Assembly: GCA_005792545.1 (NCBI GenBank)
Contig: SXRM01000249.1
Location: 3,757-67,756 of the forward strand
From: Pseudomonadota bacterium
Lineage (GTDB): Bacteria; Myxococcota_A; UBA9042
Reading direction: 5' to 3'
DNA: 64,000 nucleotides
In this document: piece by piece, positions 28,024-45,741 of the stretch
Layout of the letters: every line of letters begins with the position of its first letter
Numbering within the stretch: position 1 is the stretch's first letter
Translations under genes and position numbers: made by a program
Notes under the pieces: model-generated
Database searches by the model: none
What the model was told of the DNA's origin: nothing
The model's input: the letters and a program-made list of their open reading frames with translations, nothing else

Positions 28024-29742
28024 TCAACGATGCCGGCCCACCACCGCCAAAAGCCGCTCGCGGGTCGCGCCAATCAGTTTGTCGTCCTGCGCAGCCAGGG
28101 CGGCGCGAAAATGGGCAATCAGCTCACCCAGGTGTGCCCGCTCAGCCCCCGTCAGCGCCATATACAGGGCATCGGCGCGGCTGAGCGCCGTCACGTTCGG
28201 CAGTGCCTCTTGCGGGTGGAACTTGAGGCGCGCCATCGCCGCCCGCGCTTCCTCGATTTGGGCCGCGGTCAAACGGCCCGGTGACTGCTCGATGACCAAC
28301 TGCGCCTTCTTGCCTGTCGAGCGCACCGTGGTCTCAACTTCGATAATGCCATTGAGATCATAGCTGAATCGGATGTCCACCCCCTCCTGCCCGCTCGGCC
28401 CCGCTGGGATGTCCTTGACCGCGTACTCGCCGAGCTTGGTGTTGTGCGCCGCCATCGGGTGCTCGCCCTGGTACACATCGACGGTAATCGAGGTCTGCTC
28501 GTCCTGGGACGTGACAAAGGGCTTACTGCGGCTGCACGGAATGACCGTGCCGCGCTCGATGATCGGCACGAACACGCCCGTGATCTCCAGCGGCCCCATG
28601 CGGCTCATGCTGCTGGTTCCGAGCGAAAATGGCGCAATATCCGTCACCACCAGGTCATCCACCGCCGCGTCGCCTTGCTTTAATGCCGCCTGCACCGCCG
28701 CACCCATCGCCACCGCCTCGTCCGGCGGCAGCTTGCGCAGCGGCAAGCGGCCAAACAGCTGGCTCGCCAACCGACCCACACACGGCAGCCGCGTCGAGCC
28801 ACCGACCAGCAGCACTTCGTCGATTTGCGTTGGTTTCAAGTTGGCATCGCGCAGCGCCCGCACCACGATGCCGCGGATGCGATCGAGCAACGGCGCCCAC
28901 TCGGCCTCGGCTTCGGCGCGCGTCACGGACATTTCCAGCGACAGCGTCTTGCCGCCGACCGCCAGCTCGTAGAGCGCAATCTGCGCCTTGTCGGTCTCGC
29001 TCAGCTGCTTTTTGGCCATCTCGGCCGACTGGCGCAGCCGCGCCCACGCTTTGACATCCTTGGCAGCGTCCACCTGGTGGTCGGCCTGGATCTGCACCGC
29101 AAAGCGCTTGCCCAGCGCCTCGTCAAAGTCGTCGCCACCCAGCCGCGAGTCGCCGGCGCTCGCCTGCACTTCGATGACGCCCTCGATGATCTCCAAGATG
29201 GTGACGTCAAAGGTGCCACCGCCGAGATCCAGCACCGCGGCGCGCAATTCGCGGTTGCGCTCGTGCAGGCCATAGGCCATCGCGGCGGCCGTCGGCTCGT
29301 TGATGATGCGCTCGACGTGCAACCCTGCGATGCGCCCGGCAGCGCGCGTGGCCTGGCGTTGGGCGTCGCCAAAGTACGCGGGCACGGTGACCACGGCTTC
29401 GTCAATCGTCCTACCCAGCGCCTTTTCGGCGTCGAGCTTGAGCGCGCGCAGCACCAGCGCCGACAGGTCTTGCGGCGTGAACTTCTTGCCCGCCAGCTCA
29501 TAGACCTTGTCCGAGCCCATGTCGCGCTTGAACGACATCGCCGACCGCTCCGGGTGCGTCACGGCGCGTGCCCGCGCCGCCGCGCCGACCAGCACCCGGC
29601 CGTCGTCGTCCAGGCTGACCGCGCTTGGCGTCAGCAGCTCGCCCAGGCCATTGGGCAACACCACAGGTTTACCGTCTTGCAGTACGGCCACCAGCGAGTA
29701 GGTGGTGCCCAAGTCGATGCCAAGAATGGGTTTGCTGCTCAT
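28024..29742 (-). CDS. hscC: Hsp70-family chaperone, HscC type
   Basis: [29 protein letters not shown] and LVGGSTR motifs; short C-terminus with [12 protein letters not shown] and LKFHP; coupled (ATGA) to a DjlB/C-type J protein. Confidence 0.85.
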
Positions 29743-31418
29743 TTGTCGCCTTTCTTGGTGGGCATGCTGCGCCGGCATGCTTGTACGGCTGCGACGACCG
29801 CGCAACCCGGTTCGCCGCCGCCGGGCGAGGCCAGCGCGGCCTTTTCGACGGCGTCGGCGTCGCCGTGCAGCGCGCCCAAGAGCGTCGCCGTCTCCCAGGC
29901 CGCCAGCTGGCAGCGGCCAACCCGCAGGGCCGCCGCCACTTTCTTGCCTTGCGCGCGCAAGGCCTGCGCCGAGTCAGGGGCAGCGTGTTCCGCCAAGGCA
30001 TCGACGCTGCTGCGCACATGGCGACCGGCAGCCGCACCGGTGCCAGGCGCCTTGCCGCAGCCAGCTGGCAGGTCGCTGGGCCAGCCTGGGGCTGTCTGCC
30101 ACGGCGTCAACACCGCCGCCAGCCCCACGGGCCGCCACGGCACTAGCGGGTAGCGCAGCGCCAGGTCGGGGATGGTGACCGGCGTCGGCGGGACGTACAG
30201 GTCGCGGAACAGGTGGTCGAGGTTGGGCGCCTGCGGCCGATAGTTGGGCAAATAATCCACCGTCGAAATACCCCGTTGGGTCCGGGACTTGCTTTTGCCG
30301 GCCATGCCGGCCAGCGCCCCAATCGCCACCATGATCATCGCAATCAGCGCGACGGCGCCCCAGGAGTCTGCCGTATGGCGTCGCGGTGGCACCGGCAATG
30401 GCCAGGGCTGCTGCGCCGTCGCGAAAGGCAGCGCCACCTGCCCCGGCCGCCGCTGGTCCCAGCCCTTCTGCAACGCCGCGACCAGCGTCTGCGCCGCCAC
30501 CGGGCAGTGCATGCGCAGCATCAGCAACGCCACCGGCACGCGATCCAAGTGCGTGTCGAGCCAGCGGTCAACCACTGGCTGCAGGTCGGCCTTGGACAGT
30601 TGCTCGGCCTGCAACAGCAGCGCAAACACCGGCTGCTGCAGGCTGCGGGCCGCGAGCGCCGTCTCGCGCGTGACCTGCCAGCGCAGCATCGACTCGGTGC
30701 TGCGAAACACCTTGAGCTCGCCGCCATTGGCGTCGATCCAGCCCGCTAGCGCCTTGGCCAGTCGCTCGGCACTGGCGCGGTGCCCTTGCTGCAACAGGTC
30801 GGCAATGCCCTGCACGCAGCGCAGGACCTGCGGCCGCGGCGCGTCAGGCAGGTCGCGTGCCACATCGAGCGCGCGCGCCAGCTCGTAGGCGTGGACCACC
30901 GGGCGATCGCCCAGACCGCGCTCGAAGACGCCGCGCAGCCGCGCACGCTCGATCCGCGGATCCGCCGCGGGCAGGGGCTGCGGTGCCGGTTGCCCGTGCG
31001 GGAAGGCAGCCAACTCGGGCAATGCCTCAGCGGCTTGGTCGGCAACAGTCTGCGCTGGCGCAGCCTGGACCTGGACATCCTCCAGGTCCATCTCGGACAG
31101 CAATGCGTCCAGATCCTGGGCATAGGCCTCGCGCGCCGCAGCCGGGTCTACCCACACGATGGGCGCACGGGCGCTGTCGGCACGGTCGACTTCGTCCTCG
31201 TCGTCTTCGTTGTCGCGCAGATCCGGCTGGCCCAACAACCACGGTCGCTCACGCAGGGCCTCGTCCACTGCCTCCCAGGCCGCGCGGGCGCGGGCAAAAC
31301 CCTCTGGATCGCGCTCGGGCTTGCAGACCTTGACCTGCCGCAGATAGGCGCGCCGCGCGGTGTCGCGGTCGAACCGTTCGGGCAGGCCCAGATGCGTGCG
31401 GGCGGCGTACAGGTCCAT
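29739..31418 (-). CDS. J-domain co-chaperone (DjlB/DjlC-like) with a transmembrane segment
   Basis: N-terminal LGL...RRAYLRQVKVCKPERDPEGFARARAAWE; TM helix WGAVALIAMIMVAIGALAG. Confidence 0.75.
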   Translation of the reverse strand: MDLYAARTHLGLPERFDRDTARRAYLRQVKVCKPERDPEGFARARAAWEAVDEALRERPWLLGQPDLRDNEDDEDEVDRADSARAPIVWVDPAAAREAYAQDLDALLSEMDLEDVQVQAAPAQTVADQAAEALPELAAFPHGQPAPQPLPAADPRIERARLRGVFERGLGDRPVVHAYELARALDVARDLPDAPRPQVLRCVQGIADLLQQGHRASAERLAKALAGWIDANGGELKVFRSTESMLRWQVTRETALAARSLQQPVFALLLQAEQLSKADLQPVVDRWLDTHLDRVPVALLMLRMHCPVAAQTLVAALQKGWDQRRPGQVALPFATAQQPWPLPVPPRRHTADSWGAVALIAMIMVAIGALAGMAGKSKSRTQRGISTVDYLPNYRPQAPNLDHLFRDLYVPPTPVTIPDLALRYPLVPWRPVGLAAVLTPWQTAPGWPSDLPAGCGKAPGTGAAAGRHVRSSVDALAEHAAPDSAQALRAQGKKVAAALRVGRCQLAAWETATLLGALHGDADAVEKAALASPGGGEPGCAVVAAVQACRRSMPTKKGDK

Positions 31419-31490
31419 GCGGGCAGCGTAGCGCCAAACGAGGGGGTTGGCACGGGCGCTGGGACGCGCGGCCGGCGGCGACGGTGCAGG
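31277..31490. repeat. Direct repeat copy 1 (5' end and upstream region of the J-domain gene)
   Basis: Aligns with 32659-32873; 11 mismatches and no gaps counted by eye over the first ~170 nt. Confidence 0.92.
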
Positions 31491-31661
31491 GCTGAAGGCG
31501 CGGCGGGTTCCACACCGGGACACCCGGCGCCGCTAGCTGTTGGCAGGCACCGGCGATCGGGAACTGCCCGTCTGACCGCAGCTGCGCCGCCCTTGCCGCC
31601 AACCACGGCCACGCGTACGCTGACCTCGCATGGCGGGTTGGTGCCGCCGAAAATCGCCCGG

Positions 31662-31964
31662 ATGCCGCCTGCCGCTCTGCACGTAACGCCCGCGCACCTG
31701 CTGACCGACAGCCAAGGCCGGCCCTACTTCTTGTGGGACATGGATATGACGTTGGCCCAGTTGCGCGCTCAGTTGGCCATGCCGCCGTCGGCCGGCCGCG
31801 ATGCGCTGACGGCCAAGGTGCTGCGGCAAGCCAAGCCAGACGATGCGGTACACCTGATCGGCAAAGCCGAAATCGTCGCCCGTATGGACGACTTGGGGCC
31901 ATTGCTCGGCGACACCCGCGCGTTCTGGGAGTTTTGGGCCGCGCGCTGGCGCCAAACGAGGTAG
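31662..31964 (+). CDS. Small partner (putative antitoxin) of an AbiEii-type nucleotidyltransferase
   Basis: 100 aa with RPYFLWD and LG..RAFWEFW motifs; ends 3 nt before the NTase gene. Confidence 0.75.
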   Translation: MPPAALHVTPAHLLTDSQGRPYFLWDMDMTLAQLRAQLAMPPSAGRDALTAKVLRQAKPDDAVHLIGKAEIVARMDDLGPLLGDTRAFWEFWAARWRQTR

Positions 31965-31967
31965 GGC

Positions 31968-32615
31968 GTGGCGGCGTTGACGACCCTACAACTGCGCATC
32001 GTTGCGCTGGTGCAGTCGGTGGAGCCAGCGCCACTTCTGTTTGGGGGCGCCGCCATCTTGGCGCTGTACAGCGACCACCGGTTGACCCGCGACCTGGACC
32101 TGCAATGGCAGCCTTGTGACGACCTGTCGCAAGTGGCGCCGCAAGTGCAACGCGTGCTCACAGCGGCTGGGATTACATGGGCGGTCATCCAACGCTCACC
32201 GACGTTTGTGCGTCTTCGCGCGGCCCTCCACGACGAAGTCGTGCTCTTGGACCTGGTCGCCCACCCTGGCAGCGCACGAACCGACACCTGTCGTGCGATG
32301 ATCGGCGGCGTGCCTTGCCTGGCATTGACGCTGCAGGGGGCATTGATGGACAAGCTGGGCGCGTTGCTGTCACGGCAAGAGGGCCGCGATTTGGACGACA
32401 TCGCACACCTGCTCGCGGTCGGCGGCGATCTCGCTGCCGCCCTTGCCGCCGCCCCCAACCAGGATGCCGGTTTTTCGTGCATGACCGTTGCGTGGTTGTT
32501 GCGCGGCTGGCGCATGGAGGCCGTGGCGCTGGCTTCCGGATGGTCCCCCGCCAAGATGGCCGAAATGACCCTGTTTCGCGACCAGCTCGTCGAGCGGTTG
32601 GCGGCTAGCGTGTAG
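31968..32615 (+). CDS. AbiEii/AbiGii-family nucleotidyltransferase toxin (type IV TA-like)
   Basis: LFGGAAI..Y.DHRLTRDLD and DKLGAL..RQEGRDLDD motifs. Confidence 0.85.
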   Translation: MAALTTLQLRIVALVQSVEPAPLLFGGAAILALYSDHRLTRDLDLQWQPCDDLSQVAPQVQRVLTAAGITWAVIQRSPTFVRLRAALHDEVVLLDLVAHPGSARTDTCRAMIGGVPCLALTLQGALMDKLGALLSRQEGRDLDDIAHLLAVGGDLAAALAAAPNQDAGFSCMTVAWLLRGWRMEAVALASGWSPAKMAEMTLFRDQLVERLAASV

Positions 32616-32658
32616 GCTGACGCCGCTTTCTTGCACTTGGCCAGTTCCTTTGTCTCCG

Positions 32659-32873
32659 AGGCCACGCGGGCGCGCGCAAAGCCCTCGGGATCGCGCTCGG
32701 GCTTGCAGACCTTGACATGCCGCAGATAGCCGCGCCGCGCGGTGTCGCGGACGAACCGTTCGGGCAGGCCCAAGTGCATGCGGGCGGCGTACAGGTCCAT
32801 GCGGGCAGGGTAGCGCCAAACGAGGGGGTTGCCACGGGGCCGTGGGACGCGCCGCGGGCGGAGCAGGTGCAGG
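32659..32873 (-). pseudogene. Direct repeat copy 2: truncated duplicate of the J-domain gene 5' end
   Basis: ATG 32800: MDLYAARMHLGLPERFVRDTARRGYLRHVKVCKPERDPEGFARARVA, after which homology stops. Confidence 0.88.
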
Positions 32874-32985
32874 CGCGGGGCTCCGGTTGGTTCAACAGAA
32901 GGACAGCTGAGGCCCGCAGCGGATGGCATGCAGTGGGGGATGCTGAACCGGATCGGCAGAGCTCTGGTGTGTGCAGTGCTTGGCG

Positions 32986-33015
32986 TTGACACGTCTTGTC
33001 TTGCAGCGTTACGGT
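32986..33015 (+). promoter_or_regulatory. Putative sigma70 promoter of the teneurin-like toxin operon
   Basis: TTGACA (32986-32991), 18-nt spacer, TACGGT (33010-33015), about 70 nt before the AGGAGG-preceded ATG. Confidence 0.55.
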
Positions 33016-33094
33016 TGCGACGTTCACGGGCTGCTGCACTTGGTCATGCGGCGGTCGGCAGGTTGTGCCGTTGCAGGAGGCCCTGATGTGTAAG

Positions 33095-33105
33095 CCCCCC
33101 CCCCC
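33095..33105 (+). repeat. C11 homopolymer, candidate slipped-strand phase-variation tract
   Basis: AGGAGG (33075-33080), 5 nt, then ATG TGT AAG followed by 11 C. This frame stops at TGA 33119-33121; with 10 or 13 C it is in frame with the toxin ORF. Confidence 0.75.
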
Positions 33106-33122
33106 GGTTGACGTTTTCTGAA

Positions 33123-36100
33123 ATGTCCAGAATCGCTTGCTTGCTCGCGATTGCGCTTCTCGCCGCGTGCACTGTCGATGTCGCGGTGGCCCCGGACCGG
33201 GATAGTGGTGAGAGCGATCTCAAGGTGGCCGACTCTGGGTTCGCGACGAGATCGACAGCGCTGACCAATCCGGGCATCGAGCTCAAGTCGCAAGATCTCG
33301 CGACGATTGAGGTGGGCACGCAATCCGCTGTGGACGTGCCTGTCATTTTTGAAGTCGCCGTTGCGAACCCTAGCCCGATAACCGACGAGATTCGCTGCCG
33401 CCGAGACGGTCTGATCGAGACGGTGTACGGGGGCCTGCAAAGCGGCCAATTCACGCATACGTTTACTCAAGTGCCACGCGGCATGCATGACCTGGCGTGT
33501 TCGCTGTTTATTGGCGCCGACCTGGTCCAACGAGCGACGCGCCGCGTATTTGTTTCCGGCGACTGCACCGGCGGCGACTGCGACGATGGCAACCCCTGCA
33601 CCAACGACCCGTGCATCAATGGCAAATGCGTCTACGAGGCACTGCCAAACTGCTGCCTTTCCGACGATGCTTGTCCGAAGTCCCACACCTGCGTTCAGTT
33701 GACAGCGGGACCCAAGGTCTGCTCGCCTTGTGCGAGCGATAGCGTCTGCGACGACGGTGCCAACGCCGGCGGTACCGACTGTGCCCAAGACAAATGCAAC
33801 CTCGACGCAAGTTTAGGCCCCTACGCGCTTTGCGAACATCCGACCAACTGCAATACGGAGAGGCCACTACGCGGTTGCACTACCTTCACGGGCAACCTGG
33901 GCGGGTGGATAGGCCCCGCGGCGTTTTCGCACCAAGTCGCTGACCTTACAGGCTCTGCATCGCCAGGATCGGTGCGCTTCCAATCGGCGTCGTCCGACAA
34001 TGGGCCGTTTTGCCTGCGCTCACCCGAGTTTGTGGCACCGCCAGCCGGGCCGACAACGTGGACCGTGCAGTTCTGGCACAAGCTGGTGTCAGGGTCGCCA
34101 GTGACGTTATCGGTGACGCCGGTGTACCCGAACGCCGGCGGGTGGGCACAATCGTCTGCACCGCCCTGGACCAAACAAATCCCCGCCCCCGCCGGGCAGC
34201 CGGTGCTGGAGTCCATTGTTCCGGTGGACCCATTGGGCGGCGGCACAATCAAGCTCGACATCTGCGTCACTGTGGCTGGTGCCGCGGTTTGGGACCTGGA
34301 CGACGTCTGCATCGCTGCCGGCACTGCCCCGACGCTCGTTTGCAAGCCGATTGTGCACATGACCGCAGGCGGCAAGCGGACCGACAAAGTGTACGATTTG
34401 CATGCCCTGGGTGGCTCTGCCGGCTATCCATTGCAATTCAGTAAGCTCGCAGGGCCATCGTGGCTGGGATTCTACCCGGCGCTTTACGATGGCCACCTTG
34501 GGCAATGGCTGGCTAGCCCGGATCTGCGGTCGATGGCCAAGGAACAGGCTGGCTACCACGCAGTTACGATCCGAGCGAGCGATACTGTACTGCAAGCGCA
34601 GTGCACGACGAGCGCGAATATCCGGCATCCGAGCGGGCTACTGATCTGGGCGCCCGGGGCGCCGGACCATGCCTTTCAGCCTTTGCGCGATGCGGCGAAG
34701 GCGTTGGGTATGAGCTGGCTGGATACGCCGGCGCTTGCCAATGTCGGGGACCTATCGGCATTCCACACGATTATCGGCGTGTTGGGGATTGGCGTTGCTC
34801 CGCACTTCCCGTCTGCGCAGGAGGCTGAACGGCTGATTGCGCATTGGCAGTCAGGTCGGCTGGCCCTGGCTGGCAGCGCGTACTGGTCGGCGAATGACGG
34901 TGGCTGGTCGGCCAACCAAAAGGCAATGCGCCAAGCGTTTGGCACAACAGGCTATTCTGCCCCAGGCCAGCCCAACCTCGAACCCTCCGCTACTGGCTTC
35001 GCACTGCACCTCGACACCAACCAAGTCCCCGCAGCGCCACAACCCTATGCCATCAAGGAGGACGAGAACCTCTGGGCCAACAACGACCACCTGACCGTAA
35101 CCAATGCCGCCACGAGCTGCCTGCCGGTGTTGCGCGTCCAGCCGTTCACCGGCCCGGCCTTCTGGACCGAAATTGCGTGCGAGCACCAGGGCGGCAACCG
35201 CACGATCGCGATGTCCGCACCCTTCGGCGCGTTCAAGGACGCGCTGGGCCACGCCTCGACCGTCGAGCATGCCAAGCGGATCCTGCAGTTCCTGTCTAAC
35301 GGCTTTCCGCCGTGCGCGAGCAGTTCGGACTGCAACGACAACGATGCATGCACAACAAACGCTTGCGTCGACGGCAAATGCGACTTTGCCGCGCCGGTCA
35401 ACTGCAATGACGCCAACGATTGCACCGTGGACAGTTGCTCGAAAGACACCGGGTGCGCGCACTATGCTGACCCCAACGCGACATGCAACGACACCACGAC
35501 CTGTACCGGCGACGAACACTGCCAGGCCGGCGTGTGCATTACCGGCGGCGTGATGGCGTGTGACGACACCGACGGCAACCCTTGCACCTCGCCCTCCTGC
35601 ATTGCCTGGGTCGGTTGCGTCAACTTCAACAATGCCAACGCCTGCAACGACCAAAACCCGTGCACGGAAAACGACCCGTGCCAGGGCGGCGTCTGCGCTG
35701 GGGCGAACCAGACGGTGGCCGCGACCGGGTACTGCGCGCCCGACCCGATCGGCCCCCTGCCGCCGGACCCGACGGCACTTGCGCCTCCGTTGCCCACCAC
35801 CACCGTCACCTCGTTTTCGGCAGCCGTCGCCTTCCTGTGGTCCGGTGCCAATGCCATCCAGAAGCCGCTGCCGAATGCGGCGCCGCTGAACTTCGACCCC
35901 AGAGTCATCGCAGTCAGCCGCGGCAAGGTCATGCAGCGGAGTGGCAATGGCGTTGCGCCCCTGCCCAAGGCCAAAGTGTGGGTACCGGCGCACCCCGAAT
36001 GGGGCTACGTGCTGACGCGCATCGATGGCAGCTTCGACTTCGTGGCCGAGCAGGGCGCCGGTATCGTGGTCGAGTTCGTCAAGCCGGGGTTCTTCCCCGT

Positions 36101-39100
36101 TCATCGCAAGATCGACGTGCCCAGGCGCGATTACGTGGTGCTTGCTGAAGTTGTGCTGGTGCAGCCGGATCCGGTATCGAAAGTGTTGCAATTTCCGACG
36201 CCGCCCCTAGCGGTTGGTGCACTGCTGAGCTCTGTTGTCCAGGGCCCGCCGGGCAGCACCAAGGTCGACGACGGCCCACGCCAGACCATGCTGCTCGTGC
36301 CGCCCGAGACGACGGCGGTAGTCCATGGCCCAGGTGGCGCGCTGACCTCGCCGCCACAACTGACCTTGCGGGTGACTGAGTACACGGTCGGGCCAAATGG
36401 CCCGGCGGCAATGCCCGCAAATCTGCCGCCGGCGTCCGGCTATACGTGGTGTGGCGAGTTCAGCGCGGATGAGGTGATGGCGGCTGGCCCCAAAGCGTGG
36501 GTCGAGTTCGGCAAGCCCCTGTCGGTGTACCTCGACAACTTTCTGGATCTGCCCGTCGGTCGGACCGTGCCGCTCGGCTACTACGACCGCACCGATGCCG
36601 TGTGGAAGCAGCCGCGCCCAAAGACGGACGGCAATGGCAATGCGCTCGCCAAGACTGTCGGCAACGCGCTGGTTATCGCCGCCGGCATTTACCAAGGTGA
36701 ACTCAAAGTCTGGCTGACGCCGCCAACCCAGGGCCTGGCCACGCCTGGCTTGCCCAATGCGCTCCTTGACGCGATGGGCATGGCCGCTTGGGAACGTGAC
36801 GCGCTCAAACAGCGACTCCAGATGTTGCCCGGTGGCGCGCCTGCTCAGCCCAAGTCGTTCTGGCGCTTTCAGATTGACCACATGACACCTTGGGATGCCA
36901 ACCTGGGCTATTCCTACGTCGCCGAAGGTCCTACGGAAGACCCGCCAGGTATTTCGGGGCCGCCAGACGACACCGAAACGCCGACGTGCAAGAAAGGTTC
37001 GATCATCGAATGTGAAACGCAAGGCCTGGGCGAGGTCTTTCCCGTCGTTGGGACGCCGCTCGCGCTTCGCTACCAGAGTCGCCGCACGCCCGGTGGCCGG
37101 CAGCGGTTGGTGGAGGTGCCAGCGCCGACCGCGACCACGCCAGCGAAGGCGACCTCAACGGTCAACGTGGCCGGCCAGACCGTGCCACAGACCGGTACGG
37201 GCGGCTCGGGCGGCAAAGTGTTCCAGTGGGATGGCAAGGACGCGTTCGGACGCACGGTCAACGGTTACCAGCTCGCTGCGGCAACGACGACCTATGCCTA
37301 CAATAACAAGCGGATTACTGTCCCCATTTCCGAGGGTTCGATTGGTTTCTCGATCACGCTCCAGGACATCGCCATTTCTTTGGGGTGCACATGCGCGTCC
37401 GATGCGAGCGCCACGCTCACCTGCCACTACCCGGACGGCTCGCTATGCATGGCGATGGGCGGCACCGAGCCGACCTCGACCTTGGTCAAGTTCCCGCCGC
37501 CGCTATTCGGCACCCAGGCCGCGACGACGAAGGGCTTGGCGACCGTTGAAGTACCTGTGCTCGCCTTTAGCCCGAATCTCGCTCAGCGGACGAACACGCG
37601 CACGGTTCACAAGCGCATCGGCAACGTCGCCCCTGATGGCGACCTCGGCGGGCTGAGCCTGGGCGTGCACCATGTGTACGACCCTGGGTCACAAACCTTG
37701 GTGCTGGGCAGTGGCAAGGTGCGCAACCTGCCGACAAACAAGCTCACCGTGTCGTCGCACGCCGGGGCCGGGACCACGGCGTTGTCGACCGTGCTTGCGG
37801 AGCCGCCCGTGCCCATGGCGGGCATTGAACTGACCAACAAGATTGACGCGCTGGTGGTGACACCCCATGGTTACACCTACTTCGCCTCGGAAGGCAACCT
37901 CTATGAACTGAACCCAGCGGGTAACGTGCGCCGGGCCTGTCAGCAAGCAGGCGGCTTCGCAGTCAGGTCCCTCGCTCTTGCTGGCCCGATTACGCTGCTG
38001 GTCGGTATGCACAACAATCTGAACGGTGTGGTCCACAAGACACAGGTTGGCGCGGCATCCTGCGGCGGTGCGCCGGCCTACGGCAACGCAAGCGCCACCA
38101 GTGCCGGTAATTGGGGGCCTGCGAAAGACGCCAAGCTTCTGCCGTCCGCGCTGGCGGTCGCCCCAGACGGCGCAGTCTTCATCGCAGAGGGTGCTGAGGA
38201 CCCCGACATGCGCAAGGTTCGCCGGATCGATCCCAGCGGTGTGATTGCGCCGTATTTGGGCTCGGGCCTCGACCCGGATCTTTCGACTTCGTGTGAAGAC
38301 ATCGACCAGCCGGCGACCCAAGTTTGCATCGGCCGGCCCAGTGCATTGGCGGTGGATGGCGGCGGCAACCTGTTCGTTGGTACCGACACCGGGCGGCTCT
38401 TTTGGGTCAGCGGCGCAGATGGCCGCGTCCGTCGAATCCACGTCGAATTGCCTGCCACGCAAGCGGGCACAACCCTGCTCGGCCTGTATGCTGGGGCTAC
38501 CAATGTCATCGGCTACTGCCAGTTCGGCGGCAATGGCCAAGGCACTGTCAAGCTTGCCATGACCGGCCAGCCCGTTTCGGGCGTCTGGCGCCTGCTTGGC
38601 GCGGACCAGACGCTCGCAGCTGACAGCGGCGCCGCGCAAGTAGCAAACCTGCTCGGCGGCTCGGCCGGGGACCTTGCCATTTCCAACTGCACCGCCGTGG
38701 CCCACACCCCACAAGGCGATTGGTATGCCGCTGCGCTTGTCGACTACGTTGCGCAATCACGGCGGATCCTGCGCGTCACGCCCCAAGGCCAGGCTTGGAC
38801 CGGGGGCAACCTCTACCTGCCGTCCGAGGATGGTAGCGAGGCCTACGAATTCACTGCCGACGGCCGGCACGTAAGCACGAAAGACGCAACCACCGGCGCG
38901 ACCCTGTGGGCGTTTCAATACGACCCGCCATTCTCTGGCAAGTTGGTTTCCGTCACCGACGCCGACGGCATCCTCACCACCATCACGCGAGACGCCGCCG
39001 GCAAATCCGTTGCATTGTCGGGCCCGCCGCAGCAAGGCGCGATCACCAAGATCGCGCTCAACGACAGCGGTCTTGCCAGCAAGTTCATCAATCCGGCCGG

Positions 39101-42100
39101 CGAGACGACGACACTGGTCTATGAGACAGCGCAAGCCAAGCATGGGCTGCTGAGCAAGCTCATCCAACCGAGCGGCGACATCAGTACCTTTGCATGGGAC
39201 GACCGCGGTCGGCTGCAGAAGGACACCAATGCGGCCGGCCAGTACAAGCAGTTGGCTACGAACGAGACGGTCGCCGAAAACAAGGCCGTGACGACCGTGA
39301 CGACCAACCTCGGCCGCGTTACCACCTATGACACCAAGCACAACCCAGACGGCAGCAGCGAGCGCAAGACGGTCACGCCGGCCGGGCTGCTGACGCTCCG
39401 GCGCGAGTTCATCACGACCGCGTGGGTCATGGCCGATGGCACCGTCAAGCAAACAGCCGAAGCCGGCAGCCAGCGCGCCAACTACTTCCGCCGGGATCCT
39501 GATGGCACGGCGACCTGGCTGCGCAATGGCCCGGATACCCAGTGGGGCGCCGGGGGGCAGCAGCCTGTTGAGGCGTTTGTCTCAGTGCCTGCAATGCCCG
39601 CGGGCGAGACCTATGGGCCGGCGTTGTTGGCCCGCCAGTCGCGCGTTGAGGAGATCACCAAGCAAGCCGGTGGCCAGCCCGTGCCTCTGGTCAACCGGTT
39701 GGTGACCGACTCGATGGACGTGACGGACCTGGGCGTGCTCGGGTCAGTATCTTTCAAGCAAAAGGCCGAAATTGTCGCGGGGACGTGGCAGGTAACCTCA
39801 ACATCTGCCCAGAACCGCGTGGTGACCACCTATTTCGACGCCAGCTACCGCCCGGAGCGGACGGTTGTCTCCGGCTTGCCAGAAACCAAGACCGCCTACA
39901 ACACCGATGGCACCGTGGCGACGGTGACCACCACATCCGCGCTTGACCAGAACCAGGTGCGGACGGTGTCCTACACCTATGCCGGCGGCCGTGTGTCCAA
40001 GGTGACAGCGACGGGCACCATCTCAGGCACCACCAACACGACCACCGCTAGCGTGGAAATCGGCACCGATGCCGCGTGGCGCGTATCGAGCCAAAAATTC
40101 ACTGACGGCCCGACGATCACGTTGGCGCGCGCCGCCGCCGGCCGCCTTGCCGGCGTTTCGATGCCCAAGTCAGCGGTGGAACTCGAGCCGCCGGTGTACA
40201 GCTTCACGTATGGCAAGGCGGACCAACCGAAAAACGAAGCCTTGCCGGCGGTGGCGCCCAAGCAGGCGTGGCTGACACAGTTCGAGTACGACAACGACGG
40301 CAATCTTGCGAAGGCGACGCGGCCGGATGGCAAACAGGTCAAGTTCGAGCGCAATGGCCTGGCGCAAGTCGAGAATATTGAAGCGCCCAACGACGCCGAG
40401 CCCAACGACCCCGTTGTAACCACGGTTGCCCTCAAACCGGAGTACGACGCGGCGGGACGGGTCAAGAAAATCGCGCACAGCAAGTACGGTAGCTTGGGCT
40501 TCGCCTGGCGCGGCGTCCTCAACGGCCGTGAAACCTGGCTGGCGCCGGATGGCAACGACCCGCCCGGCAGTAACGGCCCAGCCGCCAATTGGAGCGTGCT
40601 GCGCGACTACGATTCCGCGCTGCGACTGCGCCGGGTTGGGGTGCTCAAGCCTGACGTGGCCGGCCTGGCCAACTACCATTGGGTGCACGCGTTCCTCGAT
40701 GGCGATGGCTTGCTGACGGGCTTGCAACTCAGGAGCGGCAACCTGGAGAGCCCGTACCCAGTCACAGTGGCCATGGGCACGTATGGTCGCGACGCTGCCA
40801 ATGGCCTGCTGACGGGTCGGTTGCTCGGCGCGGTGGCGGAGGCTCGCAGCTATGACGGGTTTGCCGATCCTTTGACCTACCTCGTTGAGATGCCAGCGAC
40901 CGCGCAGAGCCCGGCAACATTGCTGTACCGCGAGGACTACACCAAGCGCGATGGGCTGGGCCGCCTGATGGAACGAAAAATCAAGTACGGTGGCGTCGAC
41001 GACACTTGGACCTATACCTACGACGGGGCCCGAGGCTGGCTCAAGACTGCGCACAAGAACGGTGTTCTGGTTGGCGAATGGAAGTACGACGTCCGCGGCA
41101 ACCGCACGTCGTCGATGGAGAATGGCGTCACGACGACGGCAGCGTTTGACGTGCAGGACAAGCAACTGACCGCGGGCGACCGCACGTACACCTACGGCGA
41201 CGACCTTGGGCGGGTGACCGGCGAGTCGGAACCGGGCGTCGAGTCGCGCAGCTACACTTGGGATGCTGGCGGGCGGTTGGTCAAAGCCGTCCTCGTCAAG
41301 GACGGCGCGACTACGACCGTCGACTACGTGCTCGACGCTGCCGGTCGGCGTATTGGTAGGAAGCTCAACGGCGTGGTACAGGCCGGCTGGCTCTACGACG
41401 GCGCGCTGCGGCCGACGGCGCAGCTCGATGCCAACGGCAAGTTGGTGTTGCGGTTTGCCTATGGATCGCTGGGGCATTCGCCCGATGCCGCGGTCAAGTT
41501 CAACACTGAGACCGGTGCGGTCGCGGGCGTTTACTGGTTTGTGCATGACCAGGTCGGTAGTGTGGTGGCTGTGGTGGACACGGCGACAGGGGGCGCTGTC
41601 GAGCGGTGCAGCTACCAGCCGTGGGGCAAGCGAGATTGCGAACCGCTGCCGCCGCCGCCGTTCACGCATCCGTTCGGCTTCGCTGGTGGGCTGCACGACC
41701 TTGACACCGGGCTGGTTCGGTTTGGGGCGCGCGAGTACGACCCGCGGATCGGGCGGTGGCTGGCGCGGGATCCGATTGGGTTGGCGGGGGGGTGGAACCC
41801 GGCAGCGTACGTGGGCAATGACCCGATTGGCGCAACCGACCCAAGCGGACTGCGGCCGGATTTTGACATGGGCCCAATTGACCAGTGCCGCGCACTAGAT
41901 TCCGGCTGTCGCGAGGATTTCCTAAAGGTCGCCGAAGTTTGGGAAGCTATAGCAACAGTTCTGTTTTCAGGCCCACGGTGTGCCGGCCGTAGCCCTGGCA
42001 AGGATGGCTACGCCTTCTCGGGCCATCCTCGCGGTCCCTTGAAGGGCAGTACGGCGGGCCGCGGGCGGTCGAACTCGGGCAAAGGGGGTGGACCGGCTGG

Positions 42101-42290
42101 CCGGCCACCAGAGAAACTTACTGACTGGGAAGTCGACCAGTTGACGAAAGCCGGCCACCATCCCCATTCCTTGAAACCCAATTCCAAATACGATTTGTAC
42201 AAGGACGGCGACGGCAATATTTCGGTGCACCGGAAGGGCGGCAGCGGTGTCGGCGATCCAACTAACCTCAACATTAATGACTTCAAATGA
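33123..42290 (+). CDS. Teneurin-like Rhs/YD polymorphic toxin lipoprotein with Cys-rich stalk and Ntox33-like C-terminal toxin
   Basis: Lipobox LLAA-C; Cys repeats; teneurin-type segments (GYVLTRIDGSFDF, ETQGLGEVFPVVGTPLALRYQSRR, FQWDGKDAFG, LGGLSLGVHHVYD); NHL repeats; YD repeats; Rhs core ending DPIGATDPSGL; tip with HPHSLK and DLYKD. True start may be 33086. Confidence 0.9.
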   Translation: MSRIACLLAIALLAACTVDVAVAPDRDSGESDLKVADSGFATRSTALTNPGIELKSQDLATIEVGTQSAVDVPVIFEVAVANPSPITDEIRCRRDGLIETVYGGLQSGQFTHTFTQVPRGMHDLACSLFIGADLVQRATRRVFVSGDCTGGDCDDGNPCTNDPCINGKCVYEALPNCCLSDDACPKSHTCVQLTAGPKVCSPCASDSVCDDGANAGGTDCAQDKCNLDASLGPYALCEHPTNCNTERPLRGCTTFTGNLGGWIGPAAFSHQVADLTGSASPGSVRFQSASSDNGPFCLRSPEFVAPPAGPTTWTVQFWHKLVSGSPVTLSVTPVYPNAGGWAQSSAPPWTKQIPAPAGQPVLESIVPVDPLGGGTIKLDICVTVAGAAVWDLDDVCIAAGTAPTLVCKPIVHMTAGGKRTDKVYDLHALGGSAGYPLQFSKLAGPSWLGFYPALYDGHLGQWLASPDLRSMAKEQAGYHAVTIRASDTVLQAQCTTSANIRHPSGLLIWAPGAPDHAFQPLRDAAKALGMSWLDTPALANVGDLSAFHTIIGVLGIGVAPHFPSAQEAERLIAHWQSGRLALAGSAYWSANDGGWSANQKAMRQAFGTTGYSAPGQPNLEPSATGFALHLDTNQVPAAPQPYAIKEDENLWANNDHLTVTNAATSCLPVLRVQPFTGPAFWTEIACEHQGGNRTIAMSAPFGAFKDALGHASTVEHAKRILQFLSNGFPPCASSSDCNDNDACTTNACVDGKCDFAAPVNCNDANDCTVDSCSKDTGCAHYADPNATCNDTTTCTGDEHCQAGVCITGGVMACDDTDGNPCTSPSCIAWVGCVNFNNANACNDQNPCTENDPCQGGVCAGANQTVAATGYCAPDPIGPLPPDPTALAPPLPTTTVTSFSAAVAFLWSGANAIQKPLPNAAPLNFDPRVIAVSRGKVMQRSGNGVAPLPKAKVWVPAHPEWGYVLTRIDGSFDFVAEQGAGIVVEFVKPGFFPVHRKIDVPRRDYVVLAEVVLVQPDPVSKVLQFPTPPLAVGALLSSVVQGPPGSTKVDDGPRQTMLLVPPETTAVVHGPGGALTSPPQLTLRVTEYTVGPNGPAAMPANLPPASGYTWCGEFSADEVMAAGPKAWVEFGKPLSVYLDNFLDLPVGRTVPLGYYDRTDAVWKQPRPKTDGNGNALAKTVGNALVIAAGIYQGELKVWLTPPTQGLATPGLPNALLDAMGMAAWERDALKQRLQMLPGGAPAQPKSFWRFQIDHMTPWDANLGYSYVAEGPTEDPPGISGPPDDTETPTCKKGSIIECETQGLGEVFPVVGTPLALRYQSRRTPGGRQRLVEVPAPTATTPAKATSTVNVAGQTVPQTGTGGSGGKVFQWDGKDAFGRTVNGYQLAAATTTYAYNNKRITVPISEGSIGFSITLQDIAISLGCTCASDASATLTCHYPDGSLCMAMGGTEPTSTLVKFPPPLFGTQAATTKGLATVEVPVLAFSPNLAQRTNTRTVHKRIGNVAPDGDLGGLSLGVHHVYDPGSQTLVLGSGKVRNLPTNKLTVSSHAGAGTTALSTVLAEPPVPMAGIELTNKIDALVVTPHGYTYFASEGNLYELNPAGNVRRACQQAGGFAVRSLALAGPITLLVGMHNNLNGVVHKTQVGAASCGGAPAYGNASATSAGNWGPAKDAKLLPSALAVAPDGAVFIAEGAEDPDMRKVRRIDPSGVIAPYLGSGLDPDLSTSCEDIDQPATQVCIGRPSALAVDGGGNLFVGTDTGRLFWVSGADGRVRRIHVELPATQAGTTLLGLYAGATNVIGYCQFGGNGQGTVKLAMTGQPVSGVWRLLGADQTLAADSGAAQVANLLGGSAGDLAISNCTAVAHTPQGDWYAAALVDYVAQSRRILRVTPQGQAWTGGNLYLPSEDGSEAYEFTADGRHVSTKDATTGATLWAFQYDPPFSGKLVSVTDADGILTTITRDAAGKSVALSGPPQQGAITKIALNDSGLASKFINPAGETTTLVYETAQAKHGLLSKLIQPSGDISTFAWDDRGRLQKDTNAAGQYKQLATNETVAENKAVTTVTTNLGRVTTYDTKHNPDGSSERKTVTPAGLLTLRREFITTAWVMADGTVKQTAEAGSQRANYFRRDPDGTATWLRNGPDTQWGAGGQQPVEAFVSVPAMPAGETYGPALLARQSRVEEITKQAGGQPVPLVNRLVTDSMDVTDLGVLGSVSFKQKAEIVAGTWQVTSTSAQNRVVTTYFDASYRPERTVVSGLPETKTAYNTDGTVATVTTTSALDQNQVRTVSYTYAGGRVSKVTATGTISGTTNTTTASVEIGTDAAWRVSSQKFTDGPTITLARAAAGRLAGVSMPKSAVELEPPVYSFTYGKADQPKNEALPAVAPKQAWLTQFEYDNDGNLAKATRPDGKQVKFERNGLAQVENIEAPNDAEPNDPVVTTVALKPEYDAAGRVKKIAHSKYGSLGFAWRGVLNGRETWLAPDGNDPPGSNGPAANWSVLRDYDSALRLRRVGVLKPDVAGLANYHWVHAFLDGDGLLTGLQLRSGNLESPYPVTVAMGTYGRDAANGLLTGRLLGAVAEARSYDGFADPLTYLVEMPATAQSPATLLYREDYTKRDGLGRLMERKIKYGGVDDTWTYTYDGARGWLKTAHKNGVLVGEWKYDVRGNRTSSMENGVTTTAAFDVQDKQLTAGDRTYTYGDDLGRVTGESEPGVESRSYTWDAGGRLVKAVLVKDGATTTVDYVLDAAGRRIGRKLNGVVQAGWLYDGALRPTAQLDANGKLVLRFAYGSLGHSPDAAVKFNTETGAVAGVYWFVHDQVGSVVAVVDTATGGAVERCSYQPWGKRDCEPLPPPPFTHPFGFAGGLHDLDTGLVRFGAREYDPRIGRWLARDPIGLAGGWNPAAYVGNDPIGATDPSGLRPDFDMGPIDQCRALDSGCREDFLKVAEVWEAIATVLFSGPRCAGRSPGKDGYAFSGHPRGPLKGSTAGRGRSNSGKGGGPAGRPPEKLTDWEVDQLTKAGHHPHSLKPNSKYDLYKDGDGNISVHRKGGSGVGDPTNLNINDFK

Positions 42291-42664
42291 AAACATTCGT
42301 TTTGCTTACGATTGGCCCACTTCAGGGCACAGCACCGCGTGCCGACGACATTGATGCGCTGGCCAAGAGCGCTGGCGTCGACATTGAAGACCGCACGTGG
42401 TTTGGGATGCCGTATTGGCGGTTCTCAAGCCACAGGTCCGGAATCGCGCTGGCGTTGCATGTCGCCGAGATCGTGCCAACTCTGGTGCGTCTGACCCAGC
42501 TCGCCCGCCGAGGCGCCGTCGCAGTACCTGCCCAGTTGGGTCTGGTCGTTTACGGCAGCGACAACTGGGACATCTGCTTTTCTGGAAAGCAACTGCGTCA
42601 GTTTGCGCGCCTGGGTATAGACTTGGAAGTACAGCACTACTATTCAAATATGAATGCCGAGTGA
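42287..42664 (+). CDS. Putative immunity protein (DUF4279-like C-terminus)
   Basis: 125 aa, ATGA-coupled to the toxin stop, lower GC, ends FSGKQLRQFARLGIDLEV. Confidence 0.75.
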   Translation: MKTFVLLTIGPLQGTAPRADDIDALAKSAGVDIEDRTWFGMPYWRFSSHRSGIALALHVAEIVPTLVRLTQLARRGAVAVPAQLGLVVYGSDNWDICFSGKQLRQFARLGIDLEVQHYYSNMNAE

Positions 42665-43002
42665 GCGTATCATGTACGCCACCCCATCAGTGCCCCGGCT
42701 TTGCCCGCGCTCACGCGTAGAGCGGTTTTGGCAACGAGCACGCTGGACTATTGGTCATTTCGGCACTGGTTCGGCCCGGCAGTCAGATTTTGGGGCCTGG
42801 CCGCCATTGGCGACGGCTAGGGGTTTGCAGTCCGTTCTGCGACTTCCACGAACGCCTGGCTTGCCGGGCCGAGTTGGCTTGATGGGGCATCGCACTTCCG
42901 GTTTCGTGTGGAAACGCAGTATTGTGTCGCATTGGTCGGCTTGGGGGCCGTCGTTGGGCTGGCGCTGATGTTGGTCGTCCGCATCGGGTTGAGGTGGATA
43001 AG

Positions 43003-45741
43003 ATGACCGGCAAAGGGCACTTGGCGATCGGCGACCGCATGGCTGCATTCGGAAACGGCCGTTGCGAACCCCCGGCTGCACCCGCCGTGCTATCTTGCCG
43101 GTTACTCTGCGTTGCCGCTGTCCACTTTGGTTGCAGCGAAGACGCCGAAAGCGGCAAAGCCACCGCCCAGCGTGCGGATATCGCTGTCGTCGAAGCCGAC
43201 GCGGCAGCAGACGCGCCCACCGACGCGCCCCAACCCCCGGCCACAGCAAAACCCTGCCCCCCGACCCCCTGCCCCGACCAAAACCCCTGCACCCACGACT
43301 ACCCCCGCCCCGACTGCACCTGCGCCCACGACCCGCTGCCTTTGGCTTGCAACGACAACAACGCCTGCACCACCGCCGACTTCTGCGGCCCCGACGCCAC
43401 CTGCGCAGGCTTGCCGCTACCCGCCACCGCCTGCGCCGACGCCAACCCCTGCACGCTCGACGCCTGCGACCCCAAGCTCGGCTGCGTCCACTCGCCTGCC
43501 GACACGACCACGCCTTGCGACGACGGCAACCCGTGCACCACCCCCGACGGCTGCAAGGCCGGGGCATGCTCGCCGGGACCCAAGCTGCCGTGTGACTGCA
43601 CCACCACCGCCGACTGTGCCTCCAAAGAGGACGGCAACAAGTGCAACGGCACGCTGTACTGCGACACCACCGCGCCGCCGTTTCAGTGCAAAGTGCTTCC
43701 CGGCTCCGTCGTTGTCTGCCCGGCCGGCTTCGACACCCCGTGCACGCAGCTCAAGTGCCTCGACAGCACCGGGCAGTGTGCGCCGCTTGGCGTCAACGAA
43801 GGCGGGCCGTGCAGCGACGGCAACGCGTGCAGCGTAGGCGACCACTGCTCCGTTGGCGCTTGCCTGCCGACCGGCGTCACCACCTGTGACGACGGCAATC
43901 CCTGCACCGCCGACGGCTGTGGGCTGGCGTTTGGCTGCAACCACAAGCCGGTGGTCGACGGAACAGCTTGCGAAGCAGACGGCAGTGTGTGCACGCAGGC
44001 CGATGCGTGCGCCACCGGGAGCTGCGCCGCCGGCAAGCCGCTGCTGTGCAATGACGGCAACCAGTGCACCTTCGACGACTGCTCGCCGGCGGTCGGCTGC
44101 GTCGCCATCTTCACCACAGCCAGTTGCAATGACGGTAATGCGTGCACCGGCGGCGATGAGTGCTACAAGGGCCTCTGCTTCGGCAAAGAGGTCAATTGCG
44201 ACGACGGCAACGCGTGCACCGTGGACCTGTGCGCGGCTGGCAGCGGGTGCGACCATGTTATCGCGCCGTTCGCTTGCTCGGACGGCAACGCATGCACGGT
44301 CGGCGATGCTTGCAAGGGCGGGGTGTGCACGCCGGGGCCGGCCACCGTGACGTGCAATGACAACAGCGTCTGCACGGTTGACAGCTGCGTGCCCGCGAAG
44401 GGCTGCAACTTTGCGCCGTTGCCCGAAGACACGACGTGTACCGATGATGTGGCGTGTACAAGCGGCGATGCTTGCAAGGCGGGCAAGTGTGTTGGGGCGG
44501 CGGCGGTTTGGAAAGTGGAGTTTGGTCTGGCAAATAGCGACATTCCGCGCAAACTGCTCGTCTTGCCTGACGGATACGTGGTCGTGGGCTACTCAAAGTC
44601 GTTTTCGACGGTCAGTCGCGCCTGGTTCGTGCGCATTGACACGCACGGCAACCTCCTATGGCAAAAGTCGGCTGGTGGCAAAACGAACATAGAGGTTTAT
44701 TCGGCTACCGGCGTAGGCGGCGGTCTGCTAGTTGTGGCGACTGTCCAGGGCGACAGCGCCACGGCCTCGAAGACCTGGTTGAGCAAGGTCACCGGCAATG
44801 GGGACGTCGCGTGGACGGAACTCGGCGTGCCTTGCTACGGACACACAGCGGGTGAGAGCATTATTGTCCCAGCGCCCGCGGGTTTTGCCTGCATATCGGC
44901 GCTGTATGGCATGGGCATGGCGCGCCTTGACCAGCAGGCCAAGCTGCTGTGGACCGGCAATCTCGGCCAGCCTGCGGATCAGACAAGGACAATAACGGCA
45001 ATGCCCGGGGGCTTTGTGCTTGCGGGCCAGGTGCCGATCGAACAAAAAGGGGGGCAACAGCTTCGTTTTGTTGCTACCGATGACGTTGGCAAGCAGATTT
45101 GGCAGTTGACCGCGCCCGTGCAAGGCTCGCCCAGTGTCATCGATTCAGACAGCGGCCCACTCGGGCCAGTCTTTGTTGGCAGCGCGACTTGGATTGAGAC
45201 TATAAACATCAAGAAGTTTGCCCGCGCGCTGCAGGTTGATGCCGGCGGCAAGCTTGTTTGGGATGCGCTGTATTCGTTTGCACCCAGTTGGGCAGAAGCA
45301 GTGGGTGTCGCGGCCGGTCCAGAAGGCCTCGCCGTCGCCGGTGTCGTTATCGCTTCAACGCCTCCCTTCAAGGCGACACCCATGCTGTTGAGGACGGATG
45401 CCGCCGGCTTGGAGCGCTGGCGGGCATTGTTCGAGATCAATTCCGACGGCAATACAGTTGATGTTGCGTTTGTCGATGGCGGCATCACCGTCCTCGGCGG
45501 CTATGATCCCCCAGGCGACGACAAGATTGACGGCTGGCTCGCCCATACCGACGCATTCGGCAACTATTCGTGCGCCAACTCCGGCCCTTGCTACGCCATG
45601 AAACTCGCCGACTGCGACGACAACAACCCTTGCACCTACGACCAGTGCGACGCCGCGCACAATGGGTGTTGGAATCCTAAGCAGCCCGACAGCACGCCCT
45701 GCGGCGGGGGCAAGGTCTGCAAGGCGGGGGTATGCCAGTAA
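43003..45741 (+). CDS. Cys-rich repeat (lipo)protein with C-terminal beta-propeller-like domain
   Basis: GAGGTGG RBS; probable lipobox VHFG-C; CDDGNxCT repeats; repeated G.LLW/G..V.VG blades; terminal Cys repeat. Confidence 0.82.
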   Translation: MTGKGHLAIGDRMAAFGNGRCEPPAAPAVLSCRLLCVAAVHFGCSEDAESGKATAQRADIAVVEADAAADAPTDAPQPPATAKPCPPTPCPDQNPCTHDYPRPDCTCAHDPLPLACNDNNACTTADFCGPDATCAGLPLPATACADANPCTLDACDPKLGCVHSPADTTTPCDDGNPCTTPDGCKAGACSPGPKLPCDCTTTADCASKEDGNKCNGTLYCDTTAPPFQCKVLPGSVVVCPAGFDTPCTQLKCLDSTGQCAPLGVNEGGPCSDGNACSVGDHCSVGACLPTGVTTCDDGNPCTADGCGLAFGCNHKPVVDGTACEADGSVCTQADACATGSCAAGKPLLCNDGNQCTFDDCSPAVGCVAIFTTASCNDGNACTGGDECYKGLCFGKEVNCDDGNACTVDLCAAGSGCDHVIAPFACSDGNACTVGDACKGGVCTPGPATVTCNDNSVCTVDSCVPAKGCNFAPLPEDTTCTDDVACTSGDACKAGKCVGAAAVWKVEFGLANSDIPRKLLVLPDGYVVVGYSKSFSTVSRAWFVRIDTHGNLLWQKSAGGKTNIEVYSATGVGGGLLVVATVQGDSATASKTWLSKVTGNGDVAWTELGVPCYGHTAGESIIVPAPAGFACISALYGMGMARLDQQAKLLWTGNLGQPADQTRTITAMPGGFVLAGQVPIEQKGGQQLRFVATDDVGKQIWQLTAPVQGSPSVIDSDSGPLGPVFVGSATWIETINIKKFARALQVDAGGKLVWDALYSFAPSWAEAVGVAAGPEGLAVAGVVIASTPPFKATPMLLRTDAAGLERWRALFEINSDGNTVDVAFVDGGITVLGGYDPPGDDKIDGWLAHTDAFGNYSCANSGPCYAMKLADCDDNNPCTYDQCDAAHNGCWNPKQPDSTPCGGGKVCKAGVCQ

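Follow-up and report, generated by a model that had tools for sequence, protein, structure and literature searches.

We analysed a stretch of 64,000 nucleotides (nt), referred to here as the window, from contig SXRM01000249.1 of a draft genome placed in Myxococcota_A (UBA9042). The draft genome (G000) comprises 7.03 Mb in 435 contigs with 66.5% G+C and 78% completeness; the window lies inside a contig of 71,940 nt, and the sequencing runs that contain the locus carry a freshwater metagenome label. The subject of this work is a run of 11 cytosines (C11) located between a strong Shine-Dalgarno (SD) sequence with its ATG and the open reading frame (ORF) of a giant teneurin-like toxin, a gene that has a diverged paralog on another contig (C257) of the same genome. 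Judged from the sequence, this run probably works as a slipped-strand frame switch on the teneurin-like lipoprotein toxin gene. The features of the locus, in window positions, are the following.

32986 to 32991, + strand: -35-like hexamer TTGACA, identical in the paralog; the homology between the two paralogs starts here.
33010 to 33015, + strand: -10-like hexamer TACGGT, identical in the paralog; assigned by hand from the conservation pattern.
33017 to 33074, + strand: conserved 5' untranslated leader, with 52 of 58 positions shared with the paralog.
33075 to 33080, + strand: SD sequence AGGAGG, followed by 5 nt (ccctg) and then ATG 33086.
33086 to 33121, + strand: short frame in the C11 state, 11 codons (MCKPPPPVDVF), with the stop TGA at 33119-33121.
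33095 to 33105, + strand: C11 tract, the proposed slip tract, in codons 4-7 from ATG 33086, after TGT AAG.
33106 to 33122, + strand: A/T-rich linker of 17 nt, with the off-frame stops TGA 33109-33111 and TGA 33119-33121.
33123 to 42290, + strand: gene of the teneurin-like polymorphic toxin, as translated from the second ATG into 3055 amino acids (aa).
42287 to 42664, + strand: candidate immunity gene, an ORF of 125 aa whose ATG overlaps the toxin stop as ATGA.

The order of elements in the window is AGGAGG, ccctg, ATG (33086), TGT AAG, C11, ggttgacgttttctgaa and ATG (33123). A preliminary description, made from the letters of the window, had reported this arrangement up to the tract, and every element of it is exact. 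The translation that it gave for 11 cytosines, MCKPPPPVDVF followed by a stop, is also read as claimed, and its statements about the second ATG hold as well: no GGAG, GAGG or AGGA occurs in the 20 nt that precede ATG 33123, and this codon is found 1 nt past the stop of the short ORF. The description had further noted the tract as the longest homopolymer of the window, and C11 is indeed the sole run of 9 or more on its contig.

The product of the ORF that starts at ATG 33123 has 3055 codons, begins with MSRIACLLAIALLAAC and ends at 42290. It carries a lipobox, LAAC, with Cys16, which by rule (no predictor was applied) indicates a lipoprotein signal, so that the signal peptide from this start is a normal one of 15 residues. 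The Pfam families found on the toxin are TEN_YD-shell (PF25023, 3.4e-16), TTR_TEN1-4 (TTR, 2.5e-13), RHS_repeat (PF05593) and Ntox33, the last at the C-terminal residues 2997-3052 (7.7e-11), and the NCBIfam families are Rhs_assc_core (TIGR03696, 8e-21) and YD_repeat_2x; FN-plug and NHL propeller had no Pfam match on the toxin at E <= 0.01. On the basis of these domains, the gene belongs with the bacterial teneurin-like proteins (TLPs). The 125-aa ORF downstream matched no Pfam or NCBIfam family, and its position, which corresponds to that of the TLP immunity genes in PMC13018210, makes it a candidate immunity gene.

Homopolymers are strongly avoided in this genome. For the 7.03 Mb, a base-composition model predicts around 52 G/C runs with at least 11 bases, and only three were observed (C11, C12 and C14); from length 4 to length 8 the real run counts drop about 0.17-fold per extra base, a trend that on extrapolation leaves 0.14 runs of this size. 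At 11, the tract also exceeds the 8-9 or so G/C from which a homopolymer is long enough to be hypermutable. Two of the three long runs are the one in the toxin leader and the one in the leader of the paralog, and the third lies at a contig end. The codons of the short frame point in the same direction, since its proline codons are all CCC (with the exception of the final one in the C11 frame, CCG), whereas long ORFs of the genome use CCG for 56% and CCC for 28% of their prolines. The pure CCC composition, despite the preference for CCG, suggests selection on the homopolymer rather than on a proline-rich peptide.

Other long C runs of this lineage were recorded along the way. The C14 run (C40:8892-8905) is the longest homopolymer of the genome and ends 3 nt short of the contig end, and it is an artefact or else marks a hypermutable tract at which the assembly broke off. 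Runs of C10-C13 directly ahead of ATTGTTCAGATC(C/G)(A/T)TGATT recur in the same genome (C134:8686-8695, starting 6 nt past the stop of a Cys-rich gene) and in two genomes of the same genus (L063, with two copies, and L070). The C run together with ATTGTTCAGATC looks like a repeated element or signal with a variable C run of its own.

Genome-wide statistics and comparison with relatives indicate that ATG 33086 is likely to be used as a start codon. Among the 138 sites in the whole genome with AGGAGG 3-10 nt ahead of an ATG, a spacer of 5, as found here, is the commonest (47 sites). AGGAGG-N4-8-ATG sites open a frame of 30 or more codons in 98 of 107 cases, and the two poly-C leaders are among the nine exceptions; at background AGGAGG-ATG sites, with spacers of 25-32, the frame is short in 26 of 68. 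In the family, 30 of 37 genomes, counting G000, have giant ORFs whose N-termini are related to the first 176 residues, with 25-40% identity. At 27 of the 29 loci in the other family genomes, an SD sequence (AGGAGG, AAGAGG or GAGGA) precedes an ATG that shares the frame of the giant ORF and lies 9 to about 100 codons ahead of the lipobox, and the protein usually opens with MRNQH or MRHQH, as in the example MRHQHKTCVMRLGLVAALFALTAC. The SD and ATG of the window occupy the matching place, 12 codons before the signal peptide, a correspondence of position that may or may not reflect homology.

The start regions of these giant lipoprotein genes (2000-6500 codons) deserve mention in their own right. 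Across genera they share A(A/G)GAGGAT-TG(T/G)(G/A)-ATG CGN (A/C)AY CAG CAY, seen in L013-L041 (in L034, for instance, at about 1450-1500) and also in the genome studied here (C169, minus strand, start 15220). A linker of 9 to about 100 residues precedes the lipobox, and several of the genes have GATCCCCC about 60 nt before the ATG. The shared region could control translation as a conserved element, or else form part of an extended signal region.

Two observations show the tract at lengths other than 11. The first comes from the protein cluster at 90% identity that includes the window protein, which has two further members, P0003 (3055 aa, on a contig of 71,940 nt) and P0004 (3067 aa, on a contig of 70,955 nt). 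P0004 is identical to P0003 over 3055 aa and has 12 additional N-terminal residues, which start at the MCK of ATG 33086 and include three prolines. A tract with one C fewer (C10) yields this N-terminus, and P0004 thus represents the in-frame form in another assembly. The preliminary description had predicted that the loss of one C would join ATG 33086 to the long ORF, and P0004 has exactly the N-terminus expected from it. The window protein differs from both P0003 and P0004 at a single position, P852Q, where the window has Pro (35676-35678) and the others Gln. A search for shorter protein fragments of the N-terminus returned none at E <= 1e-10.

The second observation is the paralog on C257, a gene of 3054-3055 codons, which has C12 (14523-14534) at the same position of its leader. 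With C12 the short frame reads MCKPPPPD and ends at the TGA inside TTGACG, so that both paralogs are out of frame with the SD-led ATG, each in a different off frame, and their off-state peptides have 11 (C11) and 8 (C12) residues. The cluster of the paralog protein has a single member, found on two contigs and in each case called from the second ATG. A metagenome contig (L042) is the same as the paralog leader over the 451 bases compared, C12 included; given its length (29,359 vs 29,319 nt), it is very probably the source contig of the paralog itself and not an independent copy.

The duplication that produced the two genes is old, as indicated by the near saturation of their synonymous sites: four-fold sites are 44.5% identical, where 32.8% is expected from composition, and the proteins are 61% identical. 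The leader has nevertheless been kept, with 20 of 20 identical positions at 33075-33094, 47 of 48 at 33047-33094 and 52 of 58 at 33017-33074. Past ATG 33123 the identity is 77% over the first 114 nt and 60% over the next stretch, and by our own count from the alignment there are 12 synonymous differences in the first 38 codons. The C-terminal toxin parts have diverged to 27% identity over the last 89 aligned codons, and they carry different domains, Ntox33 in the window gene and HNH domains in the paralog. The paralog retains both TGAs of the linker as well as the second ATG. Among random genomic 17-mers, 0.27% have stops in the two alternative frames, as the 17-nt linker does. Outside these two genes the leader was not found: blastn against its own genome returned the paralog only, a DNA search that covered G000 and 40 relatives (41 genomes) located it only in G000, at its own locus and at the paralog, and an exact-pattern scan gave no match in genome contigs and L042 as the sole match among metagenome contigs.

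These data suggest the following mechanism. Transcription would probably start about 65 nt before ATG 33086, from TTGACA-18-TACGGT, and ribosomes would load at AGGAGG-N5-ATG 33086. With C10 or C13 they would read straight into the 3055-aa ORF, which would give high expression of a toxin whose signal peptide is 12 or 13 residues longer. With C11 they would halt at TGA 33119-33121, 1 nt before ATG 33123, and with C12 at the TGA inside TTGACG, about 12 nt before it; in these off states toxin, if any, would be made through inefficient re-initiation at the SD-less ATG 33123, and its level would be low or nil. Replication slippage would alter the length of the tract, presumably in a reversible manner and at a mutation rate that lets one clone yield both high- and low-expressing cells. 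The second, diverged paralog, with its different C-terminal toxin, would carry a copy of the switch of its own.

The preliminary description spoke of a tract gating the translation of the toxin. The position of the tract, between a strong SD with ATG and the toxin ORF, agrees with this term; an all-or-none gate is unlikely, as both off frames end near ATG 33123. The stops of the off frames, at or within 12 nt before this codon, give a layout that favours re-initiation, and we expect a switch between high and low rather than between on and off. The phase variation that the description proposed is likewise backed in part, by the C10 assembly, the C12 paralog, the SD and ATG statistics and the relatives; its armed and unarmed siblings, and an effect on the coupled immunity gene, are conjecture.

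Several points weigh against a frame switch. The two paralogous leaders are non-independent observations, and a short gene conversion over about 33010-33105 could mimic purifying selection on them. In this genome neither paralog is in frame, which fits equally well a gene that simply starts at the second ATG, and ATG 33123 is conserved, has an A/T-rich stretch on its 5' side and opens a normal lipoprotein signal peptide of 15 residues. The conservation of the tract in relatives, which the preliminary description had put forward as a check, was not found: from -400 to +60, none of the 29 relatives' loci has a homopolymer as long as 7. From the family, 30 C10+ loci were sampled, one for each genome with a match and with G000 among them (31 runs, since one locus has two), and 0 of the 30 had an SD and start within 70 nt upstream. 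The arrangement is therefore known from this species alone. The C10 form comes from one other assembly and may be a homopolymer consensus error. Finally, the assembled contigs of X1 and X2, the two sequencing runs in which the locus is present and which may be the source samples, show C11 alone, with no indel rows, and the unitig 33063-33105 is unbranched, which means that no C10 allele is present above the contig filter in X1 and X2; these are Logan contigs only, from which rare variants are dropped. Of the other two runs compared, X3 leaves the leader uncovered, and X4, which is about 94% alike and has a depth of 3, ends at 33079.

Of the alternatives to the switch, the one that survives best places the working start at ATG 33123 whatever the tract length, and makes the frame of ATG 33086 an upstream ORF that delivers ribosomes by re-initiation, perhaps as a polyproline leader with EF-P-dependent stalling. 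We consider it unlikely, although a number of observations agree with it. Both paralogs have kept ATG 33123 and the stops that precede it, which lie in two different frames; in this genome the two genes are in the uncoupled state, and gene callers place the start of the proteins at that codon; the short signal MSRIACLLAIALLAAC is normal for a lipoprotein, by rule; and both short peptides share MCKPPPP, proline runs being known to stall ribosomes. A peptide selected for its prolines, however, would be expected to use CCG, the codon of 56% of prolines, and not a pure C run. The C-terminal parts of the short peptides differ between the paralogs, so that only MCKPPPP is common and the tails depend on the frame, and no alternative RNA structure stands out around the SD, the tract and the second ATG, where folding is no better than in shuffled sequences (z = 0.35 and 0.77); a leader peptide acting by stalling or attenuation is thus not what we found. 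The existence of a natural in-frame form (P0004) argues against a start restricted to the second ATG, and re-initiation without an SD is usually inefficient.

Sequencing or assembly error is the next alternative: the tract would have one true length, the difference between C10 and C11 would be an artefact, and translation would run always in frame from ATG 33086 or always from ATG 33123. Homopolymers of 10-12 are error-prone in sequencing, C10 occurs in one assembly only, and the k-mer depth falls at the tract, with 29.8 (X1) and 15.4 (X2) for the unitig 33063-33105 against 63.9 and 45.8 for the summed flanks. Nonetheless, C11 is present in contigs of two separate runs at depths of about 37 (X1) and 20 (X2), with no C10 branch, and a Logan unitig that covers 33076-33606 has C11 in both. 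The paralog has C12 in the metagenome-assembled genome, and both of its contigs in the protein collection were called from the second ATG, as befits an out-of-frame tract. Moreover, error alone would account neither for the matching position, in two old paralogs, of the genome's two longest internal G/C runs nor for the stops in both off frames, and we regard this alternative as very improbable.

We give equally little credence to a stable DNA tract from which the in-frame protein arises through RNA polymerase slippage or through ribosomal +1/-1 frameshifting on CCC, at a fixed fraction of the initiations at ATG 33086. Both +1 slippage at CCC-C and slippage of the polymerase on long homopolymers have been described, and C11 would need a +1 shift and C12 a -1 shift, both on identical CCC codons. 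The C10 form in an assembly, however, shows a change at the DNA level, and no downstream structure stands out that could stimulate frameshifting. The weakest alternative makes the C run a cis-acting RNA or DNA element bound by a G-rich small RNA or a protein, with its length tuning the binding and the frame effects secondary; the 47 of 48 identical positions of 33047-33094 in old paralogs, kept without a coding reason, are in its favour, but the tract follows a strong SD and ATG, which makes frame effects unavoidable if that start is used, and the absence of an Rfam match and of significant structure leaves it hardly credible.

The slipped-strand switch, if real, could also take a more elaborate form, which we put forward with considerable doubt. 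The tract would then act as a three-state dial, with full expression in frame, a coupled low level when the stop lies 1 nt before the restart and the lowest level when it lies 12 nt before, and the dial would be duplicated on two toxins with different warheads, in such a way that a clonal swarm generates varied toxin combinations. Were this dial true, the level of immunity might vary too, since the immunity gene overlaps the toxin stop, and the policing of siblings might be heritable yet reversible. The simpler switch would itself add a stochastic and heritable component to toxin-based kin discrimination in myxobacteria, and with a reporter one could then test directly which members of a swarm are armed. 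Both starts would give the same mature lipoprotein, signal peptidase II cleaving at the cysteine of the lipobox, and for this reason N-terminal proteomics, which the preliminary description had suggested, cannot tell them apart. Annotation, too, hides the switch, since gene callers take the second ATG as the start of either paralog.

Upstream of the SD, the 18-nt spacer between the two hexamers (32992-33009) differs at 9 of 18 positions between the paralogs and both flanking hexamers are conserved; we read TTGACA-18-TACGGT as a putative -35/-10 pair with a free spacer. A scan with consensus promoters found 0 sites here, and the second hexamer matches the consensus at 3 of 6 positions. Two other promoter candidates were discarded: a sigma-54 promoter (GG-N10-GC, 33061-33074), whose GG is GA in the paralog, and an internal -35 in TTGACG at 33108, which has no TAnnnT 16-18 nt downstream. 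The leader matched no Rfam family, with only a sub-threshold ASdes match at 32723-32746. Compared with shuffled sequences, the fold of the 144-nt leader gave z = +1.01 and that of its 58-nt 5' part z = -1.42 (window) and -1.29 (paralog), with different minimum-energy folds in the two genes. A conserved hairpin was dropped as folding did not exceed that of shuffles, and pairing of the poly-C tract with the SD was dropped on the z values of the SD-to-second-ATG segment given above. The stretch 33017-33074 is 90% identical between the paralogs (33047-33094, 98%) with no Rfam match, significant fold or coding reason.

On both sides of the toxin gene and its candidate immunity gene we found the following neighbours, the first three upstream.

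28024 to 29805, - strand: Hsp70 gene.
30780 to 31964, + strand: ORF without family match, in an antitoxin-like position ahead of the AbiEii-type gene.
31968 to 32615, + strand: AbiEii-type nucleotidyltransferase toxin gene, just 5' of the toxin leader.
42922 to 45741: ORF of 939 codons, 3' of the candidate immunity gene, with Dicty_CTDC-type cysteine repeats in 6 stretches (E = 4e-26).

A Dicty_CTDC-type repeat is also present inside the toxin gene (33556-33656), where metagenome contig depth is very high because the repeat is common to many genes. Upstream of the leader, a stretch of about 280 nt (32651-32932) recurs 1.3 kb further 5' (31269-31549) with 85% identity, and matches contigs of two genomes of the same genus (G004:C179 and G003:C191) with 84-88% identity; it may be a dispersed element.

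Contingency loci are textbook knowledge in host-adapted pathogens and, to our knowledge, have hardly been described in free-living, social bacteria of high G+C content. Our full-text literature search found no contingency locus reported for Myxococcota, nor one on a polymorphic toxin of the teneurin-like or Rhs type; among the papers it returned, as far as their retrieved text goes, PMC3848433 and PMC4287609 concern other mechanisms, and PMC9900821 deals with homopolymer frameshifts in genes of the type VII secretion machinery, not in a toxin. The closest precedent is pilC of Neisseria, where a G/C homopolymer of 9-20 in the reading frame turns the gene ON and OFF by frameshift (Jonsson et al. 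1991, cited in PMC5953494). The locus described here shares with it a frameshifting G/C tract, which in our case precedes the hydrophobic core of the signal peptide. In pilC the tract is found in the part that codes for the signal peptide. Unlike pilC, the present gene encodes a polymorphic toxin and not a pilus protein, and belongs to an environmental myxobacterium and not to a host-adapted pathogen; both of its off frames end by a conserved second ATG, and its OFF state may therefore leak.

A second precedent is inlA of Listeria monocytogenes, in which a 5' poly(A) tract shifts the frame and leaves a product of about 8 aa, in a paper that proposes 5'-end homopolymers as a general means of reversible gene inactivation (PMC2831843). 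As in inlA, the homopolymer lies here a few codons after the start and leads to short truncated products (11 and 8 residues); it differs from inlA in that it is a poly(C) tract at 66.5% G+C rather than poly(A/T), is followed by a conserved restart codon and exists in two paralogous copies. With respect to the target, bacterial TLPs are described as common in Myxococcota, as predicted lipoproteins of the signal peptidase II (SPII) type and as having an immunity gene downstream (Nat Commun 2026, PMC13018210). The window gene resembles the Myxococcota TLPs of that paper in its TTR, YD-shell and Rhs core, its variable C-terminal toxin, its SPII-type signal and the small gene directly 3' of it, and departs from that account, whose main text leaves phase variation unmentioned and in which we saw no tract-based control, in the C tract ahead of the toxin. 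The mechanism that we propose is thus classical, and its target, a bacterial teneurin-like toxin, and its lineage, the Myxococcota, appear to be new.

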